Source of the DNA: Planctomycetota bacterium
GTDB lineage: Bacteria > Planctomycetota > Planctomycetia > JALXBF01
Reading direction: 5' to 3'
DNA length: 36,334 bases
Assembly: GCA_026991575.1 (NCBI GenBank)
Contig: JALXBF010000173.1
Location: 1 to 36,334, forward strand
In this document: positions 1-34,540 of the stretch, piece by piece
Numbering within the stretch: the stretch's first letter is position 1
Layout: every line of letters starts with the position of its first letter
The notes under the pieces: model-generated
Told to the model about the DNA's origin: nothing
Seen by the model: only the letters and a program-made list of their open reading frames with translations
Databases searched by the model: none
Position numbers and translations under genes: made by a program

Positions 1-1435
1 GGATCACCTTGCCGCCGATGTCGGTCAATCGGAACTCGCGGCCCTGAAACTTGTAGGTCAGTCTTGCATGGTCGATGCCGAGCAGGTGGAGCATGGTCGC
101 GTGCAGATCGTGGATGTCCACGGGATCCTCCACCGGGAAAAAGCCCAGATCGTCGGTCCGACCGACCACGGTACCGCCGCGAATGCCGCCGCCAGCAAAC
201 CAGACGGTAAATGCCTCGCGGTGATGGTCCCGTCCTGCGTTGGGCGACATCTGACCCTGCAGCATCGGTGTGCGACCAAACTCCGCAGCCCACACGATCA
301 GCGTTTCATCGAGCAGGCCCCGTTGCTCGAGGTCTCGGATCAGGGCGGCCACGGGACGATCGACTTGCTGGCACTTCTTGGGCAGGTTCTTCGCCAGCCC
401 GCTGTGGTGATCCCAGCCCTGGTCGAACAGCTGCACGAAGCGCACGCCACGTTCGACTAGACGGCGCGCGAGCAAGCAGTTGTTGGCGAACGACGGCTTC
501 CCCGGTTGCGCGCCGTACATCTGCAAAATGTGGCGCGGCTCCTGCCGGATGTCCATCAACTCAGGCACGGCCGTCTGCATGCGGAAGGCCAGCTCGTACT
601 GACCAATCCGCGTCTCGATCTCCGGGTCCGCGACCAGTGACAGGTGTCGCCGGTTGAGCTGCTGGACAGCATCCAGAATTGCCCGTCGGTCACGCCGCGT
701 CACCCCCGCCGGGTCGGACAGGAACAGCACCGGATCACCACTACTGCGGAACTCAACCCCCTGATAGATACTCGGCAAGAAGCCCGAACCCCATAGTGCA
801 TTGCCCGCACCGGCCACCTGCCCGGTGATGAGCACGACGTAAGCCGGCAGGTTTTCGTTCTCTGTACCCAGGCCATACGTCACCCACGCTCCCATGCTAG
901 GCCGGCCAAACCTGGGAAATCCGGTGTGCAGGAACAGTTGAGCCGGACCGTGGTTGAACTCGGTCGTTCGCACCGTCTTGACGAAGGCCAGCCGGTCCAC
1001 GACGGTGCCAAGGTGAGGCAGTAGCTCTGAGAGGGGGATGCCGCTCTGGCCACAGGGGCGGAATTTGAACGGCGAACCTAACAGCCGGGGATGCCCGCGA
1101 AGAAACGCAAACCGTTTTCCTTCGATGTACTCTTTGGGACACGGTTTACCGTGATGTTTGGTGAGCACGGGCTTGGGATCGAACAGATCCAGCTGCGACG
1201 GCGCGCCAACCATATGCAGGTGGATGATGCTTCGGACTCGAGCAGGAAAGTGACCCGGGGAGGCCGCCAGGGGGCGTGATTGGTCGCGTGTCCCTGCGTG
1301 GCCATCTCGATGTAGCAGCCATGCCAGCGCCACCGGACCGATGCCTACACCGATGCGACCAAGCAACTCTCGGCGCGTGAGTCGCGTGAGCCATGCATGG
1401 CCGAACCTGTTGGGCCGTCGCGCACCGTGGTGCAT
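1..1435 (-). CDS. DUF1501 domain-containing protein (3' end runs off the window)
   Basis: Not in the ORF track because there is no stop in the window. Manual translation from ATG 1435 gives [33 protein letters not shown] (Tat-like TRR). The same frame at the window edge reads [39 protein letters not shown], the typical DUF1501 C-terminus. It starts 8 nt after the DUF1553 gene stop. Confidence 0.9.
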
Positions 1436-1443
1436 GGCGTGGA

Positions 1444-4400
1444 TCACTCGCGAGTCACCATCTCATCCAGGTTGAAAAGCACGTTTGCCACCGCCCAGTA
1501 TGTTGCCAACTCCACTGCCTCTCGCTCGGGCACAGCCTCCAGCCTGCGCCCGGGCCACACCTGCGGCAACAGAGGCGAGATCCGCGCATAGGCGTCCTGA
1601 GGCCGGCTCAGCAACCGGCGGCGCTGTTTGCGCACGAGCTCGAGCAGCACGGCAAGTTCGCCGTCATCTGGCGGCCGGACCAGACAGCAGCGAAATGCGT
1701 ACGTGAGCCGCTCGACATCTGAGCCCGCCGGGTAGGTGCTCAAGACGCGGATGGCAAGTCCCAGAGCCAGCTCCGCATACGCCCGGTCGTTCATCAGCGT
1801 CAGGGCCTGAAGCGGCGTGTTGCTTACCGGACGCTGCACCACACAGCTAGCGCGGTCCGGCGCATCGAAGGTCACGAACGCCGGATAGGGCGCGCTCCTG
1901 CGCCAGATGGTGTACACACCACGGCGGAACCGGTCCGGGCCCGTCGAGGTCACGTACTTCGGGGCGTTACGCCCGACGTGCCGCCAGATGCCCGGAGGCT
2001 GCGGCGGATAGACCGGCGGCCCACCGAGCTTGTACGTCAACAGTCCGCTGGCTTGCAACGCCTGGTCCCGGATCACTTCCGCGCGCAGACGTACACGCGG
2101 AGCCCGCGCCAGCAAGCGGTTGTCTGGATCGACACCAACCAACTCTGGCCGGAACCGGGAACCCTGGCGATAAACCGCCGAGGTGACGATCTCGCGCACG
2201 ATCCGTTTCCTCGACCAGCCGTGGCTGACGAGCTCCGCGGCCAACCAGTCAAGTAGCTGCGGATGGCTGGGGGGTTCACCCTGTGTGCCAAAATCCCCCA
2301 GCGTGGGAACGATGCCGCGTCCAAACAGCTCAGCCCACCAGCGGTTTACCGTGACACGGGCCACCAGGGGATTGTCCGGATCCGTAAGCCATCGGGCCAA
2401 CCCAAGACGGTTACGCTCGTAGCCTGGCTTCATCGGGGGTAGCACGGCCGGCACGTCCGGCTGCACCCGTTCACCGGGAGTGCGGTAGTCGCCCCGCAAG
2501 AGCACGTGCGTTGCTCTGGGTTTGGGTAGTTCCACCATGACCAGCGTCGTTGGCGGCCGGATCCGATCGATTTCTTCCTGTAGCTCGGCAACACGGCGGG
2601 CAAGCCGGGCAATCCGCGCGTTGCGCTTGGCCAGGTACTGCACCAGTCGTTTCCGTTCAGAAGCAGAGCGTCGCGCTGCCGGTTTGCCCAGCAGTCGCGC
2701 AATCTCCGCCGGAACGTCCGCGGTGACGTCGTCCGCGGTGGCAAGCAACCGGAACCGCCCCAGCAGACGCGTACCACCATGCAGTTGGGCCAACTCGACA
2801 ACCAGCGTAGCATCGGCACGCACATCAACGGGCCTGTTCAAGCGGAGCACAATCCAGTGGGCTTGCCCAAAGCGAGGATGGATGGCCCAGCCACTGCGCA
2901 GGTTGCCATCGACAACATGGCGTGCCGCATAGCCGCGCGGCTCGTAGCTTGCCCACGCAGTGGCGAACACCAGGGGAACCTCACCCCCATCGTCCGTAAC
3001 AACTCGAGCCCGTAACTCGTTTAGCACGAAGTTGGGTCTTTCCGAGGAGTGCAGGCCCGGACCGCCTCCGGGTAGGCGGGCATCGTTGAGCGCTTCCAGG
3101 CGAAGGGCAGCCAGGCGGCCCGCCCCGAGCACGTAGCGGAGCCGATACGTGTCTTTCTCGGCCAGGGGCTCGGTCACAAGCACGGAGCCATCGTCCAGGA
3201 GCTGGCCGCTGCTGCCGGCTTGGGATTCAAATGCCAGAGGCTTCAGAGGAACCCAGTGCGGTGTGACTGCCAGACGGTCTGCCAGCGCCTGCGCCTGCTG
3301 GGCCACCGCCTCATCAAGCTCCGCTTGGAGGCGCGCCTTCTGTGCGCGCAGTTCCTGACGGCGCCGTGCAAGCTCCGGTGCCAGGGGCAGCTCCATCTTT
3401 GGACCGTAGAAGTTGTACGTCACGCCGTCGCCTTTAACTTCGAGGGGGGTGTTGTTGAAGAACGCGAAGAGTTGGTAGTAATCGCGCATCGTGAACGGGT
3501 CATACTTATGGTCGTGGCACTGAGCGCATTCCAGCGTGGTACCCAACCATACGGTGGCCACCGTATTAACCCGGTCAACGACCTGTTCAACACGATTCTC
3601 CTCCGGATCAACTCCGGCCTCGACGTTGCATGTCGTCAACCGCGAGAAGCCGGTCGCGATACGCTGATCGATGGTGGCATTGGGAAGTAGGTCTCCGGCA
3701 AGCTGCTCGATCGTGAACCGATCAAACGGCTTGTCCGCGTTGATTGCCCTGATGACCCAATCTCGGTAGGGCCAAACCTCGCGGTACTGGTCTGCCTGGT
3801 ATCCATTGCTGTCGGCGTATCGGGCTGCGTCGAGCCACGCGATGGCCCATCGCTCACCAAACGCCGGCGAGGCGAGCAGGCGGTCTACCAGCCGCTCGTA
3901 GCGGTCGGGTCGGGTGCTGGCCAAGTAGCTGTCGACGAACTCCGGGCTAGGGGGCAATCCCAGCAGGTCGAGGAACACGCGGCGAACAAGCACCGGCTCT
4001 GGTGCCGGTGGTGAAAGCGATAGGCTCACAGCCCGTAGCCGCACCAGGATGAATGCATCGATCGGCGTGTGAACGGTCGCAGAGGGGGGAGGAACAGGTG
4101 ACGGCGGACGGATGATCGGTGCATATGCCCAGTGGTTGGCATCCTGCGGTAGCTCGACCACCACTCCCTCCGGCCACGGAGCCCCCTGCTCAATCCAGCG
4201 CCTCACCCGCGTAATCGTTGCCTTATCCAGCGGGGCGCGACCTCGAGGCATCCGGATCGCGGGATCGTTCGTTACGAGTCGTCGGTAAAGCGGACTACGG
4301 CCCGGATCGCCCGGCACGATCGCCGGACCGTGCCTGCCACCGCGGAACGCGTCGGGCTTCCGGTCCAGCCGCAGGCCGCTCTGAGCGAGCCTCGGCCCGT

Positions 4401-20163: not shown

Positions 20164-20238
20164 CAGAGCGTAGCACAACCTGGCTAACGCACCTGCTTTG
20201 GGCGCAGGAAGTCGCTGGTTCGAATCCCGCCGCCCCGA
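20164..20238 (+). pseudogene. Degenerate tRNA-Pro(TGG)
   Basis: Perfect anticodon stem CCTGC/GCAGG with loop TTTGGGC, T-loop GGTTCGAATCC and C1-G72/A73, but 2 acceptor-stem, 2 D-stem and 1 T-stem mismatches and no encoded CCA. Confidence 0.75.
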
Positions 20239-20481
20239 GTCAGACGAAGCCGAAGAGGCTGTGACCCAGGCAAGCTCCTGGGCAGGGAGAGATATGGCCT
20301 GCGGCCGCTAAAAATGGCACCCTGGACAGACGCGGAGCACGTTGGTCAGGGAGGGTTCTGTCGTGTCGTGCAGGCCAGAGGCATCCCCTGCGTGCCGTAG
20401 GGTTCTCCCAAAGTTCGAGACGCTGACGGATGAACAGCTGATCGACTTCCGCCCGAAGCCCGAGCAGAAGACAGACCGCCA

Positions 20482-21903
20482 ATGAATCCACGAGCTGCTC
20501 TCCGCTTTGCGAAGCGGTCACAGCGTCTCCACGTTCTCATTGTGTTGGCCGTGTGTCTTTTCGGCAGCGGCTTCGTCGAACCGGGGTTGGCCGATCCGCC
20601 AGTTAACCAGTCCACACGAGTCCCGCACGGCCAACGCGCGCCGGCCACGCCACCCGACCACCCCTATGCCAGGGCCATTCTGCTCGTAGGCCCTATCGAT
20701 CCGCAGCTACGCGAAACATTGGAGAAGTGGGAGCAGATGGCCCCCGACTCGCCGGCGGCGCGCCGTTTGAGGTCTCGCTTCAGGGCCGTCATTGATCTAA
20801 TCGAGCACCACAAATCGCCGAAAGCAGAGGACTTCCGTGGAGCGCCAGCGACTCATCCCCCGGAGACGCTCTCCAGGCTTGCGGATTCAGACGCGTCGGA
20901 CCGGCTCGAGGCTGTAGCTAACGTGGCCTGGCTGGAGGCACGAGCACGGTTGCTGCAGGGTAGTCGCGGGGACGCGATACGTTTGGTCGGCGCGGTGCTT
21001 GCTTTCAGCCGGTGGGCCGGGGACAAATTCGGCATGTTTGCGTTCCTTTCCTGTGCCACGACACACAGAAACGGAGCCGAGCTTCTCGCCCGGTGGCTTC
21101 CGGGCATGACCGAGGATGAGTTGGCCCTGCTCGAAAAGGTCCTGAGGGAACTTCCTCCGCCGCCGGACGTCGTCCGTGTCCTACACTATGAGGCTCGACA
21201 GGCGCAATGCGACATCGAAGAGCTCGAGGAACTGTTCTTGGAGTGGCTCGAGGAGGCTCGTCAGGCAGGGCTCGTGCAAGAGCAGTCGGTACAACTGACA
21301 AAGAAAGTATTCGCGTTCCGGGAAACGCCGGAATCCCGGTTGATCAGCGCGCAAAAGCAGTGGGTGAAAGATCTCGAGGCCATCCTTCGTAGTGGGCGAC
21401 CCGCAGAGTGGGCGGAACTGCTATCCCGCACCGCAATGCCCGTGATCGAAGACTGGAGGGACGAGCTGTTACCATTCTTCCCGGAGTTACGTGATCGAGG
21501 CTGGCTCCGGAACCACATGTACGTGGTCTACCCCGTCCGTTCACTGATCTACCGCATCTGCCGGCGACTGAACTGGGATCCAGGACTGGCAAAGAAGAAG
21601 AGGGGGCGGCCCTTGGCTTTGCTGGTAGCGCGGCTGGATCCGAGACTCGACGCGTGCGTAGCAACGCTCTGTATTTCTCTCATCTTTGCCCAAGCGTATC
21701 CCATCTTCCTGCGAGCTGCCGTTGAGCACCTTCGCGAGGATCAGCCGGACTCGCTTACCGAGCTACACTCACTTGGCCTAACGGCTCGCATCGTTGCCGA
21801 CAACAATGGGTTCACGATACGCACCAGCCCAGGGAATCTGGAGCTTCGCGTCATGTTGCGCAAACGGGAAACGGCGCAGATGTCTGGCGAGACGCAGTTC
21901 TAA
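20482..21903 (+). CDS. Hypothetical exported helical protein, paralog 1
   Basis: 473-aa ORF with a signal-peptide-like N-terminus; alignable with the next gene (ELLPFFPELR, GRPLALL, DNxGFTIRT, LELRV). Confidence 0.8.
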   Translation: MNPRAALRFAKRSQRLHVLIVLAVCLFGSGFVEPGLADPPVNQSTRVPHGQRAPATPPDHPYARAILLVGPIDPQLRETLEKWEQMAPDSPAARRLRSRFRAVIDLIEHHKSPKAEDFRGAPATHPPETLSRLADSDASDRLEAVANVAWLEARARLLQGSRGDAIRLVGAVLAFSRWAGDKFGMFAFLSCATTHRNGAELLARWLPGMTEDELALLEKVLRELPPPPDVVRVLHYEARQAQCDIEELEELFLEWLEEARQAGLVQEQSVQLTKKVFAFRETPESRLISAQKQWVKDLEAILRSGRPAEWAELLSRTAMPVIEDWRDELLPFFPELRDRGWLRNHMYVVYPVRSLIYRICRRLNWDPGLAKKKRGRPLALLVARLDPRLDACVATLCISLIFAQAYPIFLRAAVEHLREDQPDSLTELHSLGLTARIVADNNGFTIRTSPGNLELRVMLRKRETAQMSGETQF

Positions 21904-24547: not shown

Positions 24548-25576
24548 ATGGGCATGCATGACAAAGCCTACAGACAGTTGTTCGCCAACCCCGAAGTGGT
24601 CATGGAACTGCTCTCGGTCCTCTTCCGCCTCCTGTGGGACCGGCCAGTGCCGATTCAGAACCTCTATCGCGCTGCGGAAGGCCATGTGAGTCGGCGTGCG
24701 GACCGATCGCGGCTGGCAGACCTGGTGTGGGTTGCGGAGGTGGAGGGCCGGTACGTGGTGGTGGTGCTTGAATTCACCCGCACCGTGGAGCAGGACATGC
24801 TGGGTCGCATGATGGAGTACATGGCGCTGGCGTGGCGGTCGGTGAGGCGGGAACTGTTGTCGCGTGGGGTGCCGGCGGTGCCGTTGGTGGTCGGGGTGGT
24901 GATTTACAATGGAGAGGAGCGTTGGACGGCGGCGGAGTGGATTGGGGAGAGATGGCGCGGCCCCAGCATTGGGTACGTCCGGATCGACGTCTGGCACGAT
25001 CCGCTGGAGCGGTGGGCGGACTGTCCGCTGATCAGCTATGCGTTTCGGCTGCAGCGGGAGGAGGATCCGGAGCGGGTGGTCGAGTTGCTGCGGGAGTTGG
25101 CGACGCACCTGCGGGCACATGGTTTGGCTCATCTGGAGCCTTCGTTTGCGTACTTTGCGGGGTCTGTGGTGTTGGGTGGAGAGTTAACTGAGGAGGAGTT
25201 GTCGGCCATGTCGAAGATCGAAGAGGTCAACACTCGATTGGAACAGCTCAAGGAACGATGTCGACAGCAAGGGTTTGAAGAGGGCCGTCAGCGCGGATTT
25301 GAGGAGGGGTTTGAGGAGGGGCGTGAGCAAGGGCTTAAGGAGGGACACCAGCAGGGCTTTAAGGAGGGCAGTCAGCACGGCTTTGAGGAGGGGCGTCTCC
25401 AAGGGCTCGCAGAGGGTCAGCGATTAGCATTGGTGTCGGTTTTGGAAGCGCGTTTCGCGCCGTTACCCCAGTGGGCACGCGAGCGGATCGAGCAGGCAGG
25501 CAGCGAAGAACTGAACGCGTGGATTCGTCGCGCGGTAACGGCCGAGTCCCTCGAACGCGTCTTCGAGAACGACTGA
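24548..25576 (+). CDS. Rpn-family recombination-promoting nuclease / putative transposase (YhgA-like) with DUF4351-like tail
   Basis: HDKAYRQLF, RLADLVW, VVLEF, GRMMEY, VIYNGEERW; xxEG repeats; C-terminal LEARFAPLPQWARERIEQA..EELNAW..AESLERVF. Confidence 0.88.
   Translation: MGMHDKAYRQLFANPEVVMELLSVLFRLLWDRPVPIQNLYRAAEGHVSRRADRSRLADLVWVAEVEGRYVVVVLEFTRTVEQDMLGRMMEYMALAWRSVRRELLSRGVPAVPLVVGVVIYNGEERWTAAEWIGERWRGPSIGYVRIDVWHDPLERWADCPLISYAFRLQREEDPERVVELLRELATHLRAHGLAHLEPSFAYFAGSVVLGGELTEEELSAMSKIEEVNTRLEQLKERCRQQGFEEGRQRGFEEGFEEGREQGLKEGHQQGFKEGSQHGFEEGRLQGLAEGQRLALVSVLEARFAPLPQWARERIEQAGSEELNAWIRRAVTAESLERVFEND
25265..25417 (+). repeat. 12-nt (xxxG) coding tandem repeat in rpn copy 1
   Basis: 13 four-residue units (RQQG FEEG RQRG FEEG FEEG REQG LKEG HQQG FKEG SQHG FEEG RLQG LAEG) against 4 units in copy 2. 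Confidence 0.9.
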
Positions 25577-26320
25577 AACACCTCTGACCCGGAGTTTCAG
25601 ATCTATGCTGGCGGGGTAGGCGCACGGTCCGCGCGGCGACAGCTTGGGATCCGGTGTCCACTCTATCGGTAGATGGTTCGCCGCGTGCGCAAGCGATACG
25701 GTCACGCAGCCCTTCACCACTGGGTGCTCTGGTTCGCCCCAGCCCGGCGAGCACCGAGCAAACCGCCGTCCACGGCGTCGGGGAATCTTTCGTGGGGGAG
25801 AAACACGAACAAAGCTCGTACGGCTCGCGCTACCCATCAACAGAGCGGCAGGGGGGCATAGAGCCTCCCTGCCGCGAGTTCACGGTAGCTGGCGAGGTGA
25901 ACCGTCCCCGGACGCCGGCAAAACCAGCTGCCAACGCACCCGAAACCAACCCGCCAACGCGAAACACGAAAAAGGCAACGACCTCCCTCACGCACGGGGT
26001 AAGATACCCCCCTCCCGTCGGGTGCATCCGCATCCCCGTAGGCTCAGATCATCTCCGGCAGCACCCACGCGCGCCAAGCAAGGCATCCGGTCGAACCAAC
26101 CTGCCAAAAGGGATTGCGCCCGATGAAAACGATTCGCCCGCCAGCCCAACCGCCCAGCGTGCCATCCCTCCGCAGCACCACCGAGCCGCATCCTGTCCAA
26201 CCAGCGCCGCGCGCGCGGCGCGCGCTCACCCTCATTTCCCAACTAACGTCATCAGAGGGACCCCCATAAGGCATTGTCGCACAACGACCTGTCTCCACGC
26301 CTCACACCCGCCGCCCGCTT

Positions 26321-26337: not shown

Positions 26338-26514
26338 TAAACACTCACCATCACAAACACCAACCCCGCCCCACGCCCAACTGTGCACCGGGCGCGGGGA
26401 CAGGGCCGCCTGCGGCCGGCCAACCGTAGCCACCGCTGCACGCACCAGGTCGCCAGCAGGAACCTGCGATACGGCTACAAGTCACTGTCACAAGACAACC
26501 GACGGTGGCAGACG

Positions 26515-27435
26515 ATGGGCGTGCATGACAAAGCGTACAGACAGTTGTTCGCCAACCCCGAAGTGGTCATGGAACTGCTGTCGGTCCTCTTCCGCCTCCT
26601 GTGGGACCGGCCGATGCAGATTCAGAACTTGTATCGCGCTGCGGAAGGCCATGTGAGTCGGCGTGCGGACCGATCGCGTCTGGCGGACCTGGTGTGGGTT
26701 GCGGAGGTGGAGGGCCGGTACGTGGTGGTGGTGTTTGAGTTCACCCGCACGGTGGAGCAGGACATGCTGGGCCGCATGATGGAGTACATGGCGCTGGCGT
26801 GGCGGTCGGTGAGGCGGGAACTGTTGTCGCGTGGGGTGCCGGCGGTGCCGTTAGTGGTCGGGGTGGTGATTTACAATGGAGAGGAGCGTTGGACGGCGGC
26901 GGAGTGGATTGGGGAAAGATGGCGGGGCCCCAGCATTGGGTACGTCCGCATCGACGTCTGGCACGATCCGCTGGAGCGGTGGGCGGACAGTCCGCTGATC
27001 AGCTATGCGTTTCGGCTGCAGCGGGAGGAGGATCCGGAGCGGGTGGTCGAGTTGCTGCGGGAGTTGGCGGCGCACTTGCGGGCACATGGTTTGGATCATC
27101 TGGAGCCTTCGTTTGCGTACTTTGCGGGGTCTGTGGTGTTGGGCGGGGAGTTAACCGAGGAGGAGTTATCGGCCATGTCGAAGATCGAAGAGGTCAACAC
27201 TCGGTTGGAACAGCTCAAGGAACGATGTCGACAGCAAGGGTTTGAGGAGGGGCGTCTGCAAGGGCTCGAAGAGGGCCAGCGATTAGCATTGATGTCGGTC
27301 TTGGAAGCGCGTTTTGCGCCGCTACCCCAGTGGGCACGCGAGCGGATCGAGCAAGCGGACAGCGAAGAACTGAACGCGTGGATTCGTCGCGCGGTAACGG
27401 CTGAGTCCCTCGAACGCGTCTTCGAGAACGACTGA
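26515..27435 (+). CDS. Rpn-family nuclease, copy 2 (306 aa)
   Basis: Near-identical to 24548-25576. Start set at MGVHDKAY by homology; it lacks 36 aa of xxEG repeats. Confidence 0.88.
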   Translation: MGVHDKAYRQLFANPEVVMELLSVLFRLLWDRPMQIQNLYRAAEGHVSRRADRSRLADLVWVAEVEGRYVVVVFEFTRTVEQDMLGRMMEYMALAWRSVRRELLSRGVPAVPLVVGVVIYNGEERWTAAEWIGERWRGPSIGYVRIDVWHDPLERWADSPLISYAFRLQREEDPERVVELLRELAAHLRAHGLDHLEPSFAYFAGSVVLGGELTEEELSAMSKIEEVNTRLEQLKERCRQQGFEEGRLQGLEEGQRLALMSVLEARFAPLPQWARERIEQADSEELNAWIRRAVTAESLERVFEND

Positions 27436-27634
27436 AACACTGACCCACAGCTCCAGCTCCCGGCTGGCCGGTCGGATACACGGTGCCCTCGTCGGCGATG
27501 TTTGGCCTCTTGCAGCCACTCAATCAGCAGCTCGTTCGCAGTGTGTGCAAGCCATACGCGGAAGGACACCTTCGCCACATCTCTGGAGCAATTCGTGAAC
27601 CGAAAGGTTCACGGATCCGGCGTGCCTGAGCGGG

Positions 27635-28560
27635 ATAGGACTAGCAGGCACCGGTTGCCCGGGGCCCGCCCCCACCGAACTGGACGCACGGTTCTCCCGC
27701 ACCCGGCTCTACAGTCGGCGGCCCTACCACAAAGGAGACTTCCCTGAGGCGGTTAGCCACGCGGGACGGCCAGCCGTGTTCGACTTAAAAACGACCGAGT
27801 CACCTTCTGCGCGGGTCGCCTCCAGGCCCAACGACGCACACCGGGCTGGGACCTCACCATCTCACACGCCGTCACCCGAGGCCGCCGGGAGACAACCTCC
27901 AGCTTCACGGCCATCGCCAGAGCCTCACTCCAGCCGCGCCACCTTCTTCAGCCATCCCGAGCACTCACGCTGGTACCCGTCTGCCGCTGCACCTTCCGCT
28001 CGCCTCCACCTTCCTGGGGCCCTTCCCTCCACGGGCATGAGCCGGCTCTCTCGCTTGCTTGCGACCCTCTGACTCCTGATGGGCCGCTCCTCCTGTCGGT
28101 TCGGTGCTCTGGCTCGCTTCGGTCCGCCAAGCACCACGCGGATGGCCGGGGGACATCTTACAGGGCCCACCCTATACCCTGATGTACCGCAGGCTCCTCG
28201 CGTCCCCTGCCGATCAGGCCTCCGTCGTTCACGTCATCGGACCTTCCGAGCATTCCGCCCCCAACCACCCCACGTCGCCATCCGGATCGGTCTGTCTTCC
28301 CCGGATGCTGACCTGGCCTTCCGACAAGGCATCTTGGGCTTCGCCACTACCCGGCAGGTTCGACACGACGTCAGGCCGAATCGGGTTCCTCTCGTCCGGA
28401 CTACTCGTTCGCCTCCGGTTGCTCTCCACGTCCTCGTCAGGGGCCGTGTAACAGCAGCACCCCCGCCAAGGGAATGGGCGGCCCAGGCAGGCTACTCCAA
28501 TCGGCGGGCGGGTGGCCTTATGTCCCCCGCCCGCAAGGTTGATGGATAGCGCGGGCGCAC
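27635..28560 (-). ncRNA. ORF-less group II intron (IIB-like, partly degenerate)
   Basis: Minus strand begins GTGCGCC (28560) and ends AGTCCTAT (27635). DV GAGCCGGGTGCGGGAGAACCGTGCGTCCAGTTC (27709-27677) has the AGC triad; DVI has a GCAA loop; DIII-like GAGTCAGAGGG...GCCCGTGGAGGGAAGGGCCCC (28075-28016); DII stem CCTGAT/ATCAGG; DI motifs GTGGAGAGCAACCGGAGGCGAAC, GATTCGGCC and GGCGAAGCC. No RT ORF in the roughly 300-nt DIV. Confidence 0.85.
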
Positions 28561-28580
28561 CTCCAAAAGATTTTCTCCTT

Positions 28581-28617
28581 CCGGGCCGCGGGCGGGTCGA
28601 TCCCGCCCGCGGCCCGG
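28581..28617. repeat. Perfect 16-bp inverted repeat
   Basis: CCGGGCCGCGGGCGGG-TCGAT-CCCGCCCGCGGCCCGG, 20 nt upstream of the intron 5' end. Confidence 0.9.
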
Positions 28618-28695
28618 GTGGTCCGATTCCCTTGGGCAGGCGCTGTACACAGAGAAACTGTGCTGTCGTCTCGGAGGGAGCGCGGTGCCACCTCG

Positions 28696-28727
28696 CCGAC
28701 GCCGCGGACTGCCGTCCGCGGCGTCGG
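28696..28727. repeat. Perfect 14-bp inverted repeat (terminator-like on +)
   Basis: CCGACGCCGCGGAC-TGCC-GTCCGCGGCGTCGG followed by GGCCTTTT. Confidence 0.85.
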
Positions 28728-28762
28728 GGCCTTTTCAAATGGGAAACAGAAAAAAACAAACC

Positions 28763-28778
28763 TGGCACCGCCCGTGCT
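28763..28778 (+). promoter_or_regulatory. Possible sigma-54 promoter
   Basis: TGGCAC-CGCCC-GTGCT (GG-N10-GC) preceded by an A-tract; overlaps the start of a copy resembling the intron 5' end. Confidence 0.45.
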
Positions 28779-28913
28779 ACCCATCAACACAGCGGCAGGG
28801 GGGGCATGAAGCCTCCCTGCCGCCCATTGAAGCACGCTCCCGGGTCGAGTGGGCCGTCCCCTGGGCGGCGTTCCTGCTCTTCCGCCCGTCGCAAGCGCCC
28901 AGTTACCAGCGCC

Positions 28914-29730
28914 GACACGCTGCGCTATGAGTACGACGTCCTGCACCGGCCGGTGAAGGCGATCGATCCCCATGAGGACACCGACCCGACAAACAACCCC
29001 GTCTGGCAGACGCTCTCCAACGCAGCCTACGAAGTCATCGCAACCATCGATCCGCTGGGCAACCAGACCACGATCGCCTACACCCTCACCGGCATGGTCG
29101 CCGCGGTCACTGACCCCTTGGGCCGCACGACGCGGTACCGCTACAACGCCCGCGACTGGCGGACGGCCATCATCTTGCCCGATGGCGACAGCGACCCGAA
29201 CAACAACCCGGAGATCACTTTTGGCTATGATGAGGAAGGCAATCTCATCTCGCTGACCGATGCCGACGGGAACACGACCCAGTGGCGGTTGGATGCCGTG
29301 GATCGGGTCATCGAAGAGATCAACGCGCTGGGACTGAGCCGCTTCTTCGAGCACGATGCCGCCGGACAGCTGACGGCCGTCGTCGATCGCAACGGACGGC
29401 GGCGTGAGTTCGATTACGACCTCGACGGCCGCCGCACCGCAGCGAAGTGGCTCGACGGCCAGGGCCAGATCGTCTTCCAGATCAACTACACCTGGGATGC
29501 CGCCAACCAGTTGATCGGCGTCTCCGACCCGAACCAGACCTACACGCTTGCCTACGACGACGCCGGCCGCATCATCAGTCTGGACAACACCGGTAGCCCC
29601 TCGATCTACCCGGTCATCCAGCTCACCAACACCTACGACGATGCCGCCAACCGCATCCGCCTCACCGACAACTACGGCACCGAGTTGCGGTACGAGTATG
29701 ACAGCCTGTCGCGCATGACGCAGGCGGACT
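28914..29730 (+). pseudogene. RHS/YD-repeat core fragment
   Basis: Repeated YD motifs (YEYDVLHR, TDPLGRTTRYRYN, YDEEGNL, YDLDGR, YDDAGR, YDDAANR, YEYDSLSR). No credible start codon and no DPxG core terminus. Confidence 0.9.
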
Positions 29731-29733
29731 TGA

Positions 29734-29952
29734 TGGAATGGCAACTACGTGCCGCGTTGGCACCACACGCTTTCCGACCCGTACAGGTGGACAACCTTTC
29801 CGAGGAAGGAAAAGATCATCTGGACGACACTCTACATGCGCTACTTTACGCACAAGAGAGTACTCCAGCAGATCATGCGCATCCCGTGGGCGTATGATGG
29901 CGCCGCTGCGGGTGCGGTGTACGGGGGTGTCTCCGGCTACTACGGTTACTAG
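29734..29952 (+). pseudogene. Probable orphan C-terminal tip of an RHS toxin
   Basis: A different frame immediately after the YD core reads WNGNYVPRWHHTLSDPYRW...QQIMRIPWAYDGAAAGAVYGGVSGYYGY*, has lower GC, and ends just before an immunity-like gene. Confidence 0.5.
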
Positions 29953-30837: not shown

Positions 30838-32069
30838 AAGGGGATCGCGTACAGAGCTGTTGTAGCAGGCCGATCCTGTTCGCTCCGTTTTGCATGCAGA
30901 CCGAATCGATGCTCCCCTCGGGGTAAGGGTCCCTTGGAGTCAGGACAGGGCCTGGCGCATTTGCTAGTGCCGTCGTCGGCGCTGGCACCAAACGCCGAAT
31001 GCGCATCTGCTCCTCCCGAAATGAGAGATCCAAGCTCCAGTGCAGCTGGTTCTCGGTCGACCAGCGCTTACGAAGTGCCTTCGCATGGGGTCGGCATCCG
31101 GCTCGTTGCTGGATACGTGGTAGCCCACGTGCTCTATCCCCCGCCCAGAACACTGGCAAATCGTCTCGGTTGTCGCCAGTGCGATCGTTCTGATGCTCTG
31201 CCAGCCAGGCAGCGCGCGGATCTCGGCCGGTGCCGGCGTCGCCGTCGCGCAACGAGTCTCCCGACGGCCATGCCCACGATCCTGCTGGCAGCACCTCGGA
31301 AGTCTGGACAGCTTCCCTCTTTCGCCCATGGCCATAAGATACTCCCGCACCCTCAGATAAAGCGTCGGCTGGTTTGCCTTCAAGGTCAGCACGTACTTCC
31401 ACACGTTCGCCACGATCGGTTCGACAATGTGCGCGTGGCAGCCAGCCGCGTCGCTCGTCACACTGGCGCCATTCAGTTCGAGCGAATCGATTAGATGCGG
31501 CATCACCACCGTCTCGTTGGTATACGGCTCGGCACCGACCTGGCGCAGCGCCACCGCCTCCTCCGTGGCCCATGCTGTAACCACCTGCAGCACCGCTCCC
31601 CCAGCCCGCCCACGCTGCGCCCGTCGCGACGCCATCCCGTCTATCGCCCCCAACGACTGAGCGACCTCCCACGGCGGGCACGCAAGTCCAACAGCTACTC
31701 CGTCCACGCCCCGATCAACTCCTCAGGGTCCACGCCCTGAAACACGTGCGCAAACGTGTCATCCGACGGAATCCCATGCGGCAAATCCAGCGACCTGCGA
31801 AAAAAACGCCTCTTCTCATGCAGCAACATGTCACGATTGCCTGCAAACTCCTCGCCCTGCATAGGATGGCGCATGACGCCAGAACCACGACCGTATCCAG
31901 CCGATGACGAACCCTCGCGCGCTGACGCCCCGGGTCCCGCATCCTCGACAGATACTGCACCAACGGATCCTCGCTGCCCGGGCCATGCTACTCCTCCATG
32001 ATCCCTAGTCCGAAGCCGGTGAGCGCGGACAGTTTGCCACCATCCCTCTCTGATGCAACGGCCGCCCTT
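30838..32069 (-). mobile_element. ISAs1-family (H-repeat) element, transposase pseudogene
   Basis: Frameshifted pieces RDPGR..VRHRL..VVLASCAILC, HGIPSDDTF, AIDG, TNE..P.L, VTSDAAGC, YVLTLKANQPTL, DRGHGRRETR and WSTENQLHWSLDLSFREE; GGAGG SD with ATG at 31986. Ends are approximate. Confidence 0.88.
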
Positions 32070-32123
32070 CGTCGTGGGACCCACGGTTCCAGGTGCGTCA
32101 GCCGTGACGGAAAGGGGTGCTAC

Positions 32124-32765
32124 TCAGAAGGCAGCGGATGCAATGCAGACGATCAGTAAGAGCGTGTACGCCGTGGTGTGTTCTCTGCGCTCTGCTTCAT
32201 TGTCGACGTTCAGTGCGTGGAACACGAGACGCGTTAACAGGCAGGACAGTCCGACGATGGCGAGCCCCCTCATCAGAACCAGCTCGGTACTTGCGACGAT
32301 AGGCGGTTCCAACGGTGACGTCGGACGTGAGGTGTGCCACCCAGCCAGTTCGGTTGCGAGGGAGAGAGACGTCGAAGGCAGAACCGTGACGGCGTACGCG
32401 AACGCCGGGGCAGTGAGCGCAAATGCCAGCACCACGGCAAACCAACGAAAGACCCATGACGGCACGATGCGCCGCGCTAGCGTGGCCAATGTGTAGGTCA
32501 ACACGCAGAACAAGACCGCACCACATGCAGCCAGAGAAGACGCTACGGCTGCGTGGGGTGTCCACCACCAGGCGGATGCGGCAACTGCGGCTTGGTAGAA
32601 CGATCGGGGGAAGTCGAACGGCGGAGCCGTACTGGCACAGCGCGACCAGACGAAAGCTAGAAGGTACACTAGGGCCAGCGTGCTCGACGTGCGATCCAGG
32701 AGGTCTCTTGGAAGCCAGTTTGCCTTGAACACGCCACGCATGGGATCGTTTCTCCCCTTGCGCAT
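32124..32765 (-). CDS. Hypothetical multi-pass membrane protein
   Basis: 213-aa ORF with about 5 hydrophobic segments; no recognisable family. Confidence 0.6.
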   Translation of the reverse strand: MRKGRNDPMRGVFKANWLPRDLLDRTSSTLALVYLLAFVWSRCASTAPPFDFPRSFYQAAVAASAWWWTPHAAVASSLAACGAVLFCVLTYTLATLARRIVPSWVFRWFAVVLAFALTAPAFAYAVTVLPSTSLSLATELAGWHTSRPTSPLEPPIVASTELVLMRGLAIVGLSCLLTRLVFHALNVDNEAERREHTTAYTLLLIVCIASAAF

Positions 32766-33057
32766 GGGCCGATGTTACGAACCACTGGTAATCCGCTAGC
32801 CGCCAGTCGAGTGGCGTCGCTGGGGGAGCTGCTGCATGAGCTCGCGGTTGGTCGACCCGGCGGCGCTCTCGCCGTTCCCTGGCTGCCCTCCGGCGCCCAG
32901 CAGACCCGTTAGCGCGCCTAGGCATCTGCTGTGTCCTCGTGAGACTGCTGGAAGCCGTCCTCACCCAGGGGACCGGAAACACCACGGTCTGCGCGATTGG
33001 TCCGGCTCTGAGCCGGGCGAGAGCTTGAACGCAGTGGCGCTGACGTCGTGGCCGGCT

Positions 33058-33576
33058 CTAGTGGCGAGGCAGCGGATGGCTGTTTGGGGATCTCGTGTGC
33101 AGTCCGACGCCCAAGGCGCAGTCGTCTGCCTGCTCTGCGGTGTCAGGCCCCGCAGGAGCCTGTGCCTCCAGCGACGACAGCAGCACAGCCTCAAACTGTT
33201 CGCCGAAATCTCTGCGCCATGTGCCCCAGTACAGCGTGCCGTGATGAAACTCGTACCGCATCCACTCGCCCGACTTGAGCGTGATATCGAGTTCGATCGG
33301 GGGACAGCCGCATTCCCATCGGGCGTAGTAAGGCCGAGAGCGCTGGGGCAGGGCATCTGCGATCCTGCGAATGGTCGGCGGGTCGTCGATTCTCACACTC
33401 CGGCCCCAATAGCTAATCCGCACATAGGAAGCGGAGCCGAGCGCATGCCGAATCTCTTGGGCCGTTGGCGGGCCCCAGCGCAAGCCTGAACTGCAGCCAC
33501 CGCTCGCGGCAACCCAGAGCAGAGCAAGGTATGCCCACCACCGTCTTGAGGCAGCATCACCCATCCGCCGCTGCAT
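33058..33576 (-). CDS. Hypothetical lipoprotein
   Basis: Basic N-terminus, hydrophobic stretch, then SGG-C lipobox-like motif; GAAGG upstream. Confidence 0.55.
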   Translation of the reverse strand: MQRRMGDAASRRWWAYLALLWVAASGGCSSGLRWGPPTAQEIRHALGSASYVRISYWGRSVRIDDPPTIRRIADALPQRSRPYYARWECGCPPIELDITLKSGEWMRYEFHHGTLYWGTWRRDFGEQFEAVLLSSLEAQAPAGPDTAEQADDCALGVGLHTRSPNSHPLPRH

Positions 33577-33609
33577 GCCTAATTATCGTCACCTTCCTTC
33601 GGTGCCATG

Positions 33610-34540
33610 GAGTCTGTCCGAAACATGCCGGGCGAATAGAATCCCCTGCGTCGGGGGGCTGTGGTTAGCCAAACAGACCCCGAACCCAGGGAGGCATCGC
33701 ATGGACGCACGCTATCGCCGTCCGCAACCAATTGTAGCCTTGATGAAGGCGAGCGTTGATGAAGGTAATTGTGGAGTCTCTGGGCGTTGGGCCGCGTTCC
33801 AGCCCGGGTCGGCGTGGTCGGCCAGCCACATCGCTGAGGCGGATCTGCAACTCGGTTTGGTATCGGATCCGTGCGGGCTGCCCGTGGAAAGCCATCCCGG
33901 CCACCGACGAGCTGGCCAACGGGAGCACCGCACACGAGTGGTTCAAGCGGTGGACGGAGGCTGGGGTGTTCGCACCGTTGCACCTGGTGCTGGTGGCATT
34001 GTACGTGGAGGACGGTCGGGCGCGGCTGCGTCGACTTGGAATCGACTGTACTCTGGTGCCGGCGCCGTTGGGATGCGAGGGCAGCGGGCCGAATCCGGCA
34101 GACCGTGGGAAGGAGGGAATAAAGGTGTCGGTAGTGGTGGACGAGGCGGGTGTGCCGCTGGCGGTGCATGTGGCTGGGCGAACATCCCGGAGTTCAAGCT
34201 GTTAGGCGAGACGTTGGCGGAGCTGGCTGGTCCGGTGTTGGAGGGGTTGGCCAAGGGCAAGATCCAACCGGAGCTCGTCGCAGACAAGGGTTACGACTAC
34301 AGTCAGGCCCGTGAGCAAGCAGCTGAGTACGGCTTCATGCCGCGGTTCGCCAAGCGGCGTGCCTCCTACAGGCGAGCGCCGAAGAAGGTGCATCGGGTCC
34401 GAGCCAACACAGAACGAGTGGCAGCCTGGCTGAAGTCGTTCCGGGGCGTACGCCTATGCTGGGCCCGTAAGCGGTGCTGCTATCTAGCCGCTGTCGCTCT
34501 CCCCACAGGGCACTATACCCTACTCATGACCGGAGCTTTC
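33610..34540 (+). mobile_element. IS5-family element, transposase pseudogene
   Basis: GRP..LRRICNSVWYRIRAGCPWKAIP, STAHEWFKRW..AGVF, GIDCT, GPNPADRGK.G.K, ADKGYD and RANTER..AWLKSFR. ATG at 33701; frameshifts near 33750 and 34178; right end not recognisable. Confidence 0.88.

Follow-up and report, generated by a model that had tools for sequence, protein, structure and literature searches.

A headless, decayed and ORF-less group II intron copy in a Planctomycetota genome

The window analyzed here is a 36,334-nt stretch of DNA (contig JALXBF010000173.1) from the genome of a Planctomycetota bacterium (assembly GCA_026991575.1, hereafter G000). G000 is a short-read metagenome bin of 191 contigs and 4.96 Mb, is 97.8% complete, and has repeats that are collapsed or broken in the assembly. 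The locus of interest lies between a gene for an Rpn/YhgA-like putative transposase (26383-27435, plus strand; Pfam Transposase_31) and a fragment of an RHS/YD-repeat gene (29033-29897, plus strand; RHS_repeat, 132 bits). The latter bounds the repeat block, and its RHS_repeat matches begin at about residue 190 of the ORF 28512-29897. For this locus, the original prediction was a complete 926-nt ORF-less group II intron on the minus strand (27635-28560).

The surroundings are rich in repeats. The Rpn-like gene next to the locus is one of two Transposase_31 genes (24548-25576 and 26383-27435, plus strand), which are 92% identical over about 1.17 kb and whose paralogues were matched on eight or more further contigs. 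Downstream of the first (25543-25910) come the same 3' flank and a piece of intron-derived repeat, without an intron body. Part of the RHS fragment (29033-29736, plus strand) recurs in at least 12 places with 93-97% identity. On contigs C86, C179, C77, and C44, the RHS fragment lies about 415 nt past the repeat that ends at window position 29071, whereas the two overlap by 39 nt in the window; hence, the window copy seems to carry a deletion. An ORF at 30964-31707 (minus strand) has a weak match to the transposase domain DDE_Tnp_1, which at 18.8 bits misses the cut-off of 23. Other segments present in multiple copies occupy 20379-21858, 31722-33582, and 33610-34523, and the window as a whole is a repeat mosaic. 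A scan of the whole window at Rfam gathering thresholds returned a tRNA alone and no match to an intron model. The tRNA gene (20164-20238, plus strand) has a rather low Rfam score itself, 34.5 bits against a cut-off of 29.

Intron copies elsewhere in G000 are named here after the contigs that carry them (C19, C48, C26, and so on). Positions of the predicted intron were numbered along the minus strand from 28560, and positions 1-127 thus correspond to 28560-28434. RF00029 is the Rfam model for domains V and VI (full model, 1-77; gathering cut-off, 40 bits).

The body of the element is well supported as intron DNA. The BLAST search aligned window 28433-27933 with positions 95-594 of the intron on C19 at 88.4% identity over about 500 nt, and window 27728-27635 with positions 1881-1970 of the same intron at 78.7% identity. 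The C19 intron contains an ORF for a bona fide reverse transcriptase (RT)/maturase. Identity of this degree is far beyond chance, and the body is therefore group II intron DNA. Alignment with nhmmer puts the onset of homology at about position 90-98 of C19. The longer segment (27933-28433, minus strand; C19:13745-15714, positions 95-594) covers the 3' portion of domain I and domains II and III. It is followed by a remnant of domain IV (27710-27932, minus strand), part of which is common to the ORF-less copies C146 and C140 and the remainder only to C143 and C157. The expectation that domain IV would hold at most a trace of a maturase N-terminus was right in that no ORF is present, but the trace itself went undetected: with the C19 maturase as the tblastn query, no match was obtained anywhere in the window contig at E ≤ 10.

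Domain V lies at 27677-27709 and domain VI with the intron 3' end at 27635-27676 (both minus strand). RF00029 matched 27630-27711 (minus strand) over its full length with 26.0 bits, which is below the gathering cut-off. The E-value was 0.015 in a 1.6-kb scan (27300-28900) and 0.011 in the whole genome. Across G000, 13 places matched at E ≤ 1, and the window ranked seventh among them; four exceeded the gathering cut-off (C48, 54.6 bits; C19, 47.2 bits; C177, 43.1 bits; C93, 41.7 bits). None of the group-II-D1D4 models matched 27300-28900 at E ≤ 10. The covariance-model check that had been recommended thus gave a domain V/VI match, if a sub-threshold one, and nothing for domains I-IV.

Domain V of the window copy retains the AGC triad. 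It has an upper-helix G-U, one C-A mismatch, and a bulge that reads GC where AC would be expected, the last two appearing as had been described in both the RF00029 alignment and the family alignment, and it is homologous to the copies that score 41.7-54.6 bits. It shares a double change from U-A to G-C with other copies. The compensatory changes in domain V show that the sub-lineage kept the structure for some time. Domain V alone is no proof of death, because C93, which is above the cut-off (41.7 bits), shares the C-A mismatch. Domain VI has a bulged A near an AY 3' end, and its helix has two mismatches in comparison with intact copies. The candidate branch A at 27642 is the predicted A at -8, and it aligned with the bulged A of the family. 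The AT 3' end also held. In an alignment that took in 20 family 3' ends, the window copy, C146, C19, and C48 have unrelated downstream DNA and diverge exactly after ..CCTAT (..CCTGT in C48); ..CCTAT ends at 27635 in the window, and this is a true family boundary. Considering the several changes in domains V and VI and the 88% identity to the ORF-containing intron, the decay of the window copy does not appear to be obviously recent.

The 5' end is a different matter. C19, C48, and C122 start with GTGCG followed by about 90 nt, a segment that is absent from the window copy, and the family's first ~97 nt are missing altogether. A profile of the family's first 113 nt matched 28 places in the genome and none in the window contig (E ≤ 0.01). 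The 5' segment of C19 has a weak match to group-II-D1D4-4 (24.3 bits against a cut-off of 49), and this segment, too, is absent from the window. The window copy consequently has an incomplete domain I, from which the 5' strand of the basal stems is lost, and it is no intact ribozyme with both splice sites and target-like exon flanks.

The letters GTGCG are indeed present at 28560-28556 (minus strand), but they do not mark an element boundary, and the copy has no GUGYG at a true one. The nhmmer repeat cover was 51 and 50 matches in the 20-nt bins flanking 28560/28561 and 8-18 matches over the intron body. With cover that even across 28560/28561, there is no boundary at the proposed 5' splice site; the repeat runs through it. 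Among 45 other copies of this repeat, the pentamer at that place is GTGCG in three, ATGCG in ten (the commonest form), ATCTG in five, ATACG in four, and other sequences in the rest.

The long-range basal helix of domain I, which the original prediction drew between the first nucleotides and an internal segment, did not withstand folding: its summed pair probability was 0.0 in the thermodynamic ensemble of the 926-nt RNA. In the predicted ensemble, part of its 5' strand is engaged in a local hairpin (positions 28-56). The proposed helix would join repeat sequence to a conserved segment of the intron; when C19 is inspected by eye, the natural partner of that 3' strand lies within the true first ~20 nt.

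Positions 1-127 of the predicted intron (28434-28560) belong to a repeat that was matched about 50 times in the genome. On the plus strand, 28439-28640 aligned with positions 88-294 of C139 (74% identity), 28519-28719 with positions 176-384 of C104 (76%), and 28526-28642 with positions 179-298 of C27b (82%). Taken together, the plus-strand matches cover positions ~88-384 of the copies C139, C104, C27b, C149, and C167, which carry the segment that we call the arm; hence, these 127 nt are the antisense of an arm-type intron piece. From the body outward, the plus strand contains an inverted intron piece (28430-28455; positions ~88-113) fused head-to-head to the truncated body, and then the arm of a second intron subfamily (28456-28582). 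In the arm, a 46-nt piece is followed by a GC hairpin (28502-28533), by GTTGATGG, and by a T-rich spacer, within which the GTGCG (28556-28560, minus strand) sits; a 35-nt palindromic GC-rich hairpin (28583-28617) follows. This hairpin is common to both inverted intron pieces and gave 52 short-blast matches, counting both strands. The second intron-derived piece (28581-28907, minus strand) corresponds to positions 74-398 of C26, a 947-nt ORF-less copy, at 77.8% identity over 333 nt. These alignments resolve 27635-28907 into at least three intron fragments, arranged as a mosaic. The alternative that 28434-28907 is an independent palindromic repeat or a MITE bounded by inverted ends was rejected, its parts being collinear with the 5' halves of arm-type copies.

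At the head-to-head join (28430-28455), the forward body begins at intron position ~98. The same join occurs in C92, C146, and C70 at 84-91% identity; the C92 match spans positions -438 to 506 of the predicted intron, and C146 and C70 share the break. As the join recurs in these diverged copies, it is old and no assembly accident of the window contig. Contigs from three public DNA runs gave short pieces over the stretch, none of which spans 28433/28434 or 28560/28561; since they are too short to bridge the junctions, the order of repeats in the window depends on the assembly.

The arm is widespread in the family. There are 28 family 5' ends, 26 of them long enough to score, and 21 lead into the arm, four into a C19-type body (C19, C48, C122, and C140), and one is unclear. 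In C26 (947 nt), C16, and C27b (820 nt), which are ORF-less copies with both ends, the arm follows intron position ~110 and precedes domains II-VI; C149, C139, and C167 are shorter arm carriers. No D1D4 model matched C26, C16, or C27b at E ≤ 1, and on that account a by-eye fit of the 46-nt piece to the D1D4-4 consensus was dropped. The arm may be the native domain I of the second subfamily, or it may be an old insertion.

A BLAST search of the region against G000 gave 85 matches. With five family queries, the family comprised 57 loci on 44 contigs, which amount to 27,822 bases or 0.56% of the assembly; 19 of the 57 loci touch contig ends. The search for siblings and an RT-encoding parent, proposed with the original prediction, was thus successful, with the RT-encoding relative on C19. 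RVT_1 and GIIM occur together at one locus in G000, on C19; with repeats collapsed or broken in a short-read bin, the count of one maturase gene is a lower bound. The C19 intron (C19:13745-15714, within the region C19:13137-16760) is 1970 nt long, starts with GTGCG, and ends with ..CCTAT. Its 452-aa ORF scored 379 bits against TIGR04416, for which the cut-off is 300, and also matched RVT_1 (146 bits) and GIIM (50 bits). No domain was matched past the maturase domain, and the ORF ends soon after it. Its best relatives with solved structures are the GsI-IIC RT 6ar1 (234 bits) and the group II intron RT/maturase 7uim (211 bits); TeI4h (157 bits) and LtrA (135 bits) score lower. At the start of its 3' exon, C19 has the GTTGATGG motif seen in the arm-type copies. 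When 30 further genomes from the same class were searched, only G001, the sole genome of the same taxonomic family, gave matches to the intron family.

C48 carries an intact-looking ORF-less sibling of about 640 nt (C48:5461-6103, within the region C48:4800-6800), which starts with GTGCG and has the best domain V/VI score of the genome (54.6 bits). It is 95% identical to C19, and these two are the only copies that appear intact across the whole ribozyme. The ORF loss in C48 looks like a deletion between short direct repeats (ACCACCG, C19 positions ~553 and ~1875). As a candidate for an active non-autonomous intron, C48 ranks first. The family contains at least two different ORF deletions, that of C48 and that of the window/C146 type. 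A second group II intron-like RT of 616 aa is encoded on C96 (ORF 637-2487, minus strand, of region G000:C96:32301-35960). It was rejected as a parent at 30% identity, with 217 bits for TIGR04416 against 300, no GIIM, and no domain V on the contig. Possibly, it is a group II-like RT that stands free of any intron.

The 5' ends of the family lie directly 3' of a GC hairpin. An unoccupied family site is present in the window at 28792/28791 (minus strand), within the second intron-derived piece, where a GC hairpin (28825-28792) is directly followed by GTTGATGG. With the unoccupied site (28836-28792) as the reference and 2000 random genome windows as the background, 14 of 18 5' flanks reached or exceeded the 99th percentile in their match to the hairpin site, and 4 of 12 3' flanks matched the GTTGATGG motif that follows the hairpin. 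The site of hairpin plus GTTGATGG is located inside arm-type copies, which suggests that the introns home into each other. The pattern, together with the maturase, points to a IIC-like family that inserts just 3' of a GC hairpin. Typical IIC introns are shorter than the ribozyme part of this family (~640 nt in C48).

At 10% identity, the 3' flank of the window copy does not resemble the GTTGATGG site that the family usually occupies. In C143 and C157, similarity extends over positions 380-1159 of the predicted intron and its downstream DNA, which takes in about 230 nt of the 3' flank together with the end of the Rpn-like gene. BLAST gave 94% identity for intron plus flank. C149 (twice) and C167 share domain V/VI plus the Rpn-side 3' flank. 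The window copy would thus have spread as passenger DNA with the Rpn-like gene and not by retrohoming. On C169 (692-929, minus strand), a paralogue of the Rpn 3' flank has a GC hairpin in place of the intron 3' end. This paralogue may represent an empty site, its junction alignment being ambiguous.

The reading that fits these observations best, and that we hold to be very probably correct, is that the minus strand at 27635-28433 holds a dead group II intron copy, ORF-less and truncated at the 5' end, and that its 5' break adjoins, head-to-head, an inverted piece from a related intron. The copy retains the 3' part of domain I, domains II and III, a gutted domain IV, mutated domains V and VI, and a correct 3' end. 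With its first ~97 nt gone, it has neither a 5' splice site nor the 5' strand of the domain I stems; folding into a ribozyme, splicing, and retrohoming would therefore be impossible. The inverted piece and the further piece (28430-28907) form the palindromic repeat that was mistaken for the first 127 nt of the intron. The head-to-head junction probably arose from a deletion or rearrangement between inverted intron copies. Recombination between inverted repeats was rejected as its source on logic, as no palindromic join would be expected from it; a deletion at the palindrome center of a head-to-head pair is plausible. No undeleted head-to-head pair was found among the 28 family 5'-end places in the genome. 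Thereafter, the truncated copy presumably multiplied at the DNA level together with the adjacent Rpn-like gene.

Three other explanations were weighed. One complete ORF-less intron at 27635-28560, spliced or mobilized in trans by a maturase encoded elsewhere, would account for the GTGCG and AT ends, the A at -8, and the domain V/VI match (genome E-value, 0.011), and a related maturase gene is present in the genome. We nevertheless regard it as highly improbable. Its positions 1-127 lie in the ~50-match repeat without a boundary at 28560 and are antisense to arm-type intron pieces, the family 5' end is missing from the contig, only 3 of 45 other copies have GTGCG at that place, pairing in the proposed domain I helix has a probability of 0.0, and no EBS1 complementary to the upstream exon had been found when the prediction was made. 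Splicing or mobility in trans fails in particular because the 5' splice site is absent and the first 127 nt are the antisense of another repeat. Of the alternatives originally offered, a non-autonomous or a recently inactivated ribozyme, inactivation therefore stands, whereas activity in trans falls with the lost 5' part and recency is not obvious. An assembly artefact, in which the body, the inverted arm, and the repeat were mis-joined in the metagenome bin, is just as hard to credit. The metagenome origin, the short public-run contigs over the stretch, and the many family loci at contig ends speak for it, but the junctions recur in diverged copies, at 91% identity in C92 (positions -193 to 506) and at 84-85% in C146 and C70, and a chimera would not recur in diverged form.

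Somewhat less improbable, yet still unlikely, is that 28907-27635 (minus strand) represents one arm-type copy, 5'-truncated at position ~74 by the RHS junction, with its middle replaced by an inverted arm and C19-type sequence through subfamily recombination or nested insertion. C26 is collinear with the window in the manner expected, with positions 74-398 at 28907-28581, 491-852 at 28147-27787, and 875-935 at 27708-27646. However, the middle measures 433 nt in the window against 92 nt in C26, the body at 28433-27933 is nearer to C19 (88%) than to C26 (75%), and C146 and C70 share the break while differing upstream of the hairpin. The copy would be non-functional under this explanation as well. 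We thus retain the truncated copy with its fused inverted piece as the preferred reading. The locus is a real but ordinary relic: headless, ORF-less, and decayed.

For annotation, the window locus is a decaying retroelement fragment without plausible activity and should not be recorded as an interrupting intron. It also illustrates that GTGCG, domain V, a branch A, and an AT end can line up across two unrelated pieces of DNA. Since the hallmarks can combine in this way, intron boundaries need comparison with siblings. The family is of modest value, in that it might serve to study how introns proliferate and decay in this phylum: G000 combines at least one intact-looking ORF-less copy (C48), one ORF-containing copy (C19), and many fragments that break the assembly. 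A literature search for group II introns in Planctomycetes returned no dedicated report by title or abstract among the best 10 of 27 matches. For the family as a whole, with its about 57 IIC-like loci and single maturase gene, we consider it possible, if rather less than an even chance, that the preferred target of GC hairpin plus GTTGATGG lies in domain I of one of the family's own subfamilies, and that mutual homing builds nested arrays whose collapse leaves many 5' stubs (21 of 26 scored 5' ends lead into the arm) and palindromic composites resembling a repeat family in their own right. Were the arm native and such copies still mobilized by the one maturase, the family would represent an IIC-like lineage that targets itself and is mostly devoid of ORFs.

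The locus and its family can be compared with known systems. According to the review by Zimmerly and Semper (2015; PMC4424553), most bacterial copies are truncated or inactivated and lie among other mobile DNA; the window locus, between an Rpn-like gene, an RHS fragment, and other repeats, fits that pattern. The same review states that ORF-less introns are rare in bacteria and occur almost always in genomes with related ORF-containing introns, and that IIC introns insert at terminator motifs (PMC4424553). The family is in line with these three statements. The truncation in the window is more than a plain 5' loss, in that a related intron contributes an inverted piece at the break, and four contigs have the same join. 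In Methanosarcina acetivorans, nested arrays are attributed to repeated site-specific homing into other introns, offset by deletions and without coding exons (PMC4424553, PMC2882425). The homing sites of those arrays are described as being in other introns; the present family differs in that its site is a GC hairpin plus GTTGATGG in the domain I region of arm-type copies, where the arm may or may not be native intron sequence. The TeI3/TeI4 introns of Thermosynechococcus elongatus offer a further likeness. According to Mohr, Ghanem, and Lambowitz (2010; PMC2882425), many related copies in one genome, mostly ORF-less, are accompanied by few maturases able to act in trans, and some copies are inserted within other introns. 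The ORF-less introns of T. elongatus are described there as intact, with one common deletion and demonstrated mobility (PMC2882425), whereas the window copy is a fragment and its family has at least two ORF deletions and few intact copies. The family maturase resembles IIC enzymes, and TeI4h is a more distant relative. The likeness to IIC introns such as GsI-IIC lies in a maturase nearest to IIC RTs, in the lack of a matched post-maturase domain, and in the hairpin before 14 of 18 5' ends; the family departs from IIC introns in that its only D1D4 match is a weak one to group-II-D1D4-4 (24.3 bits against 49) and in that its ribozyme is longer than is typical of the class.
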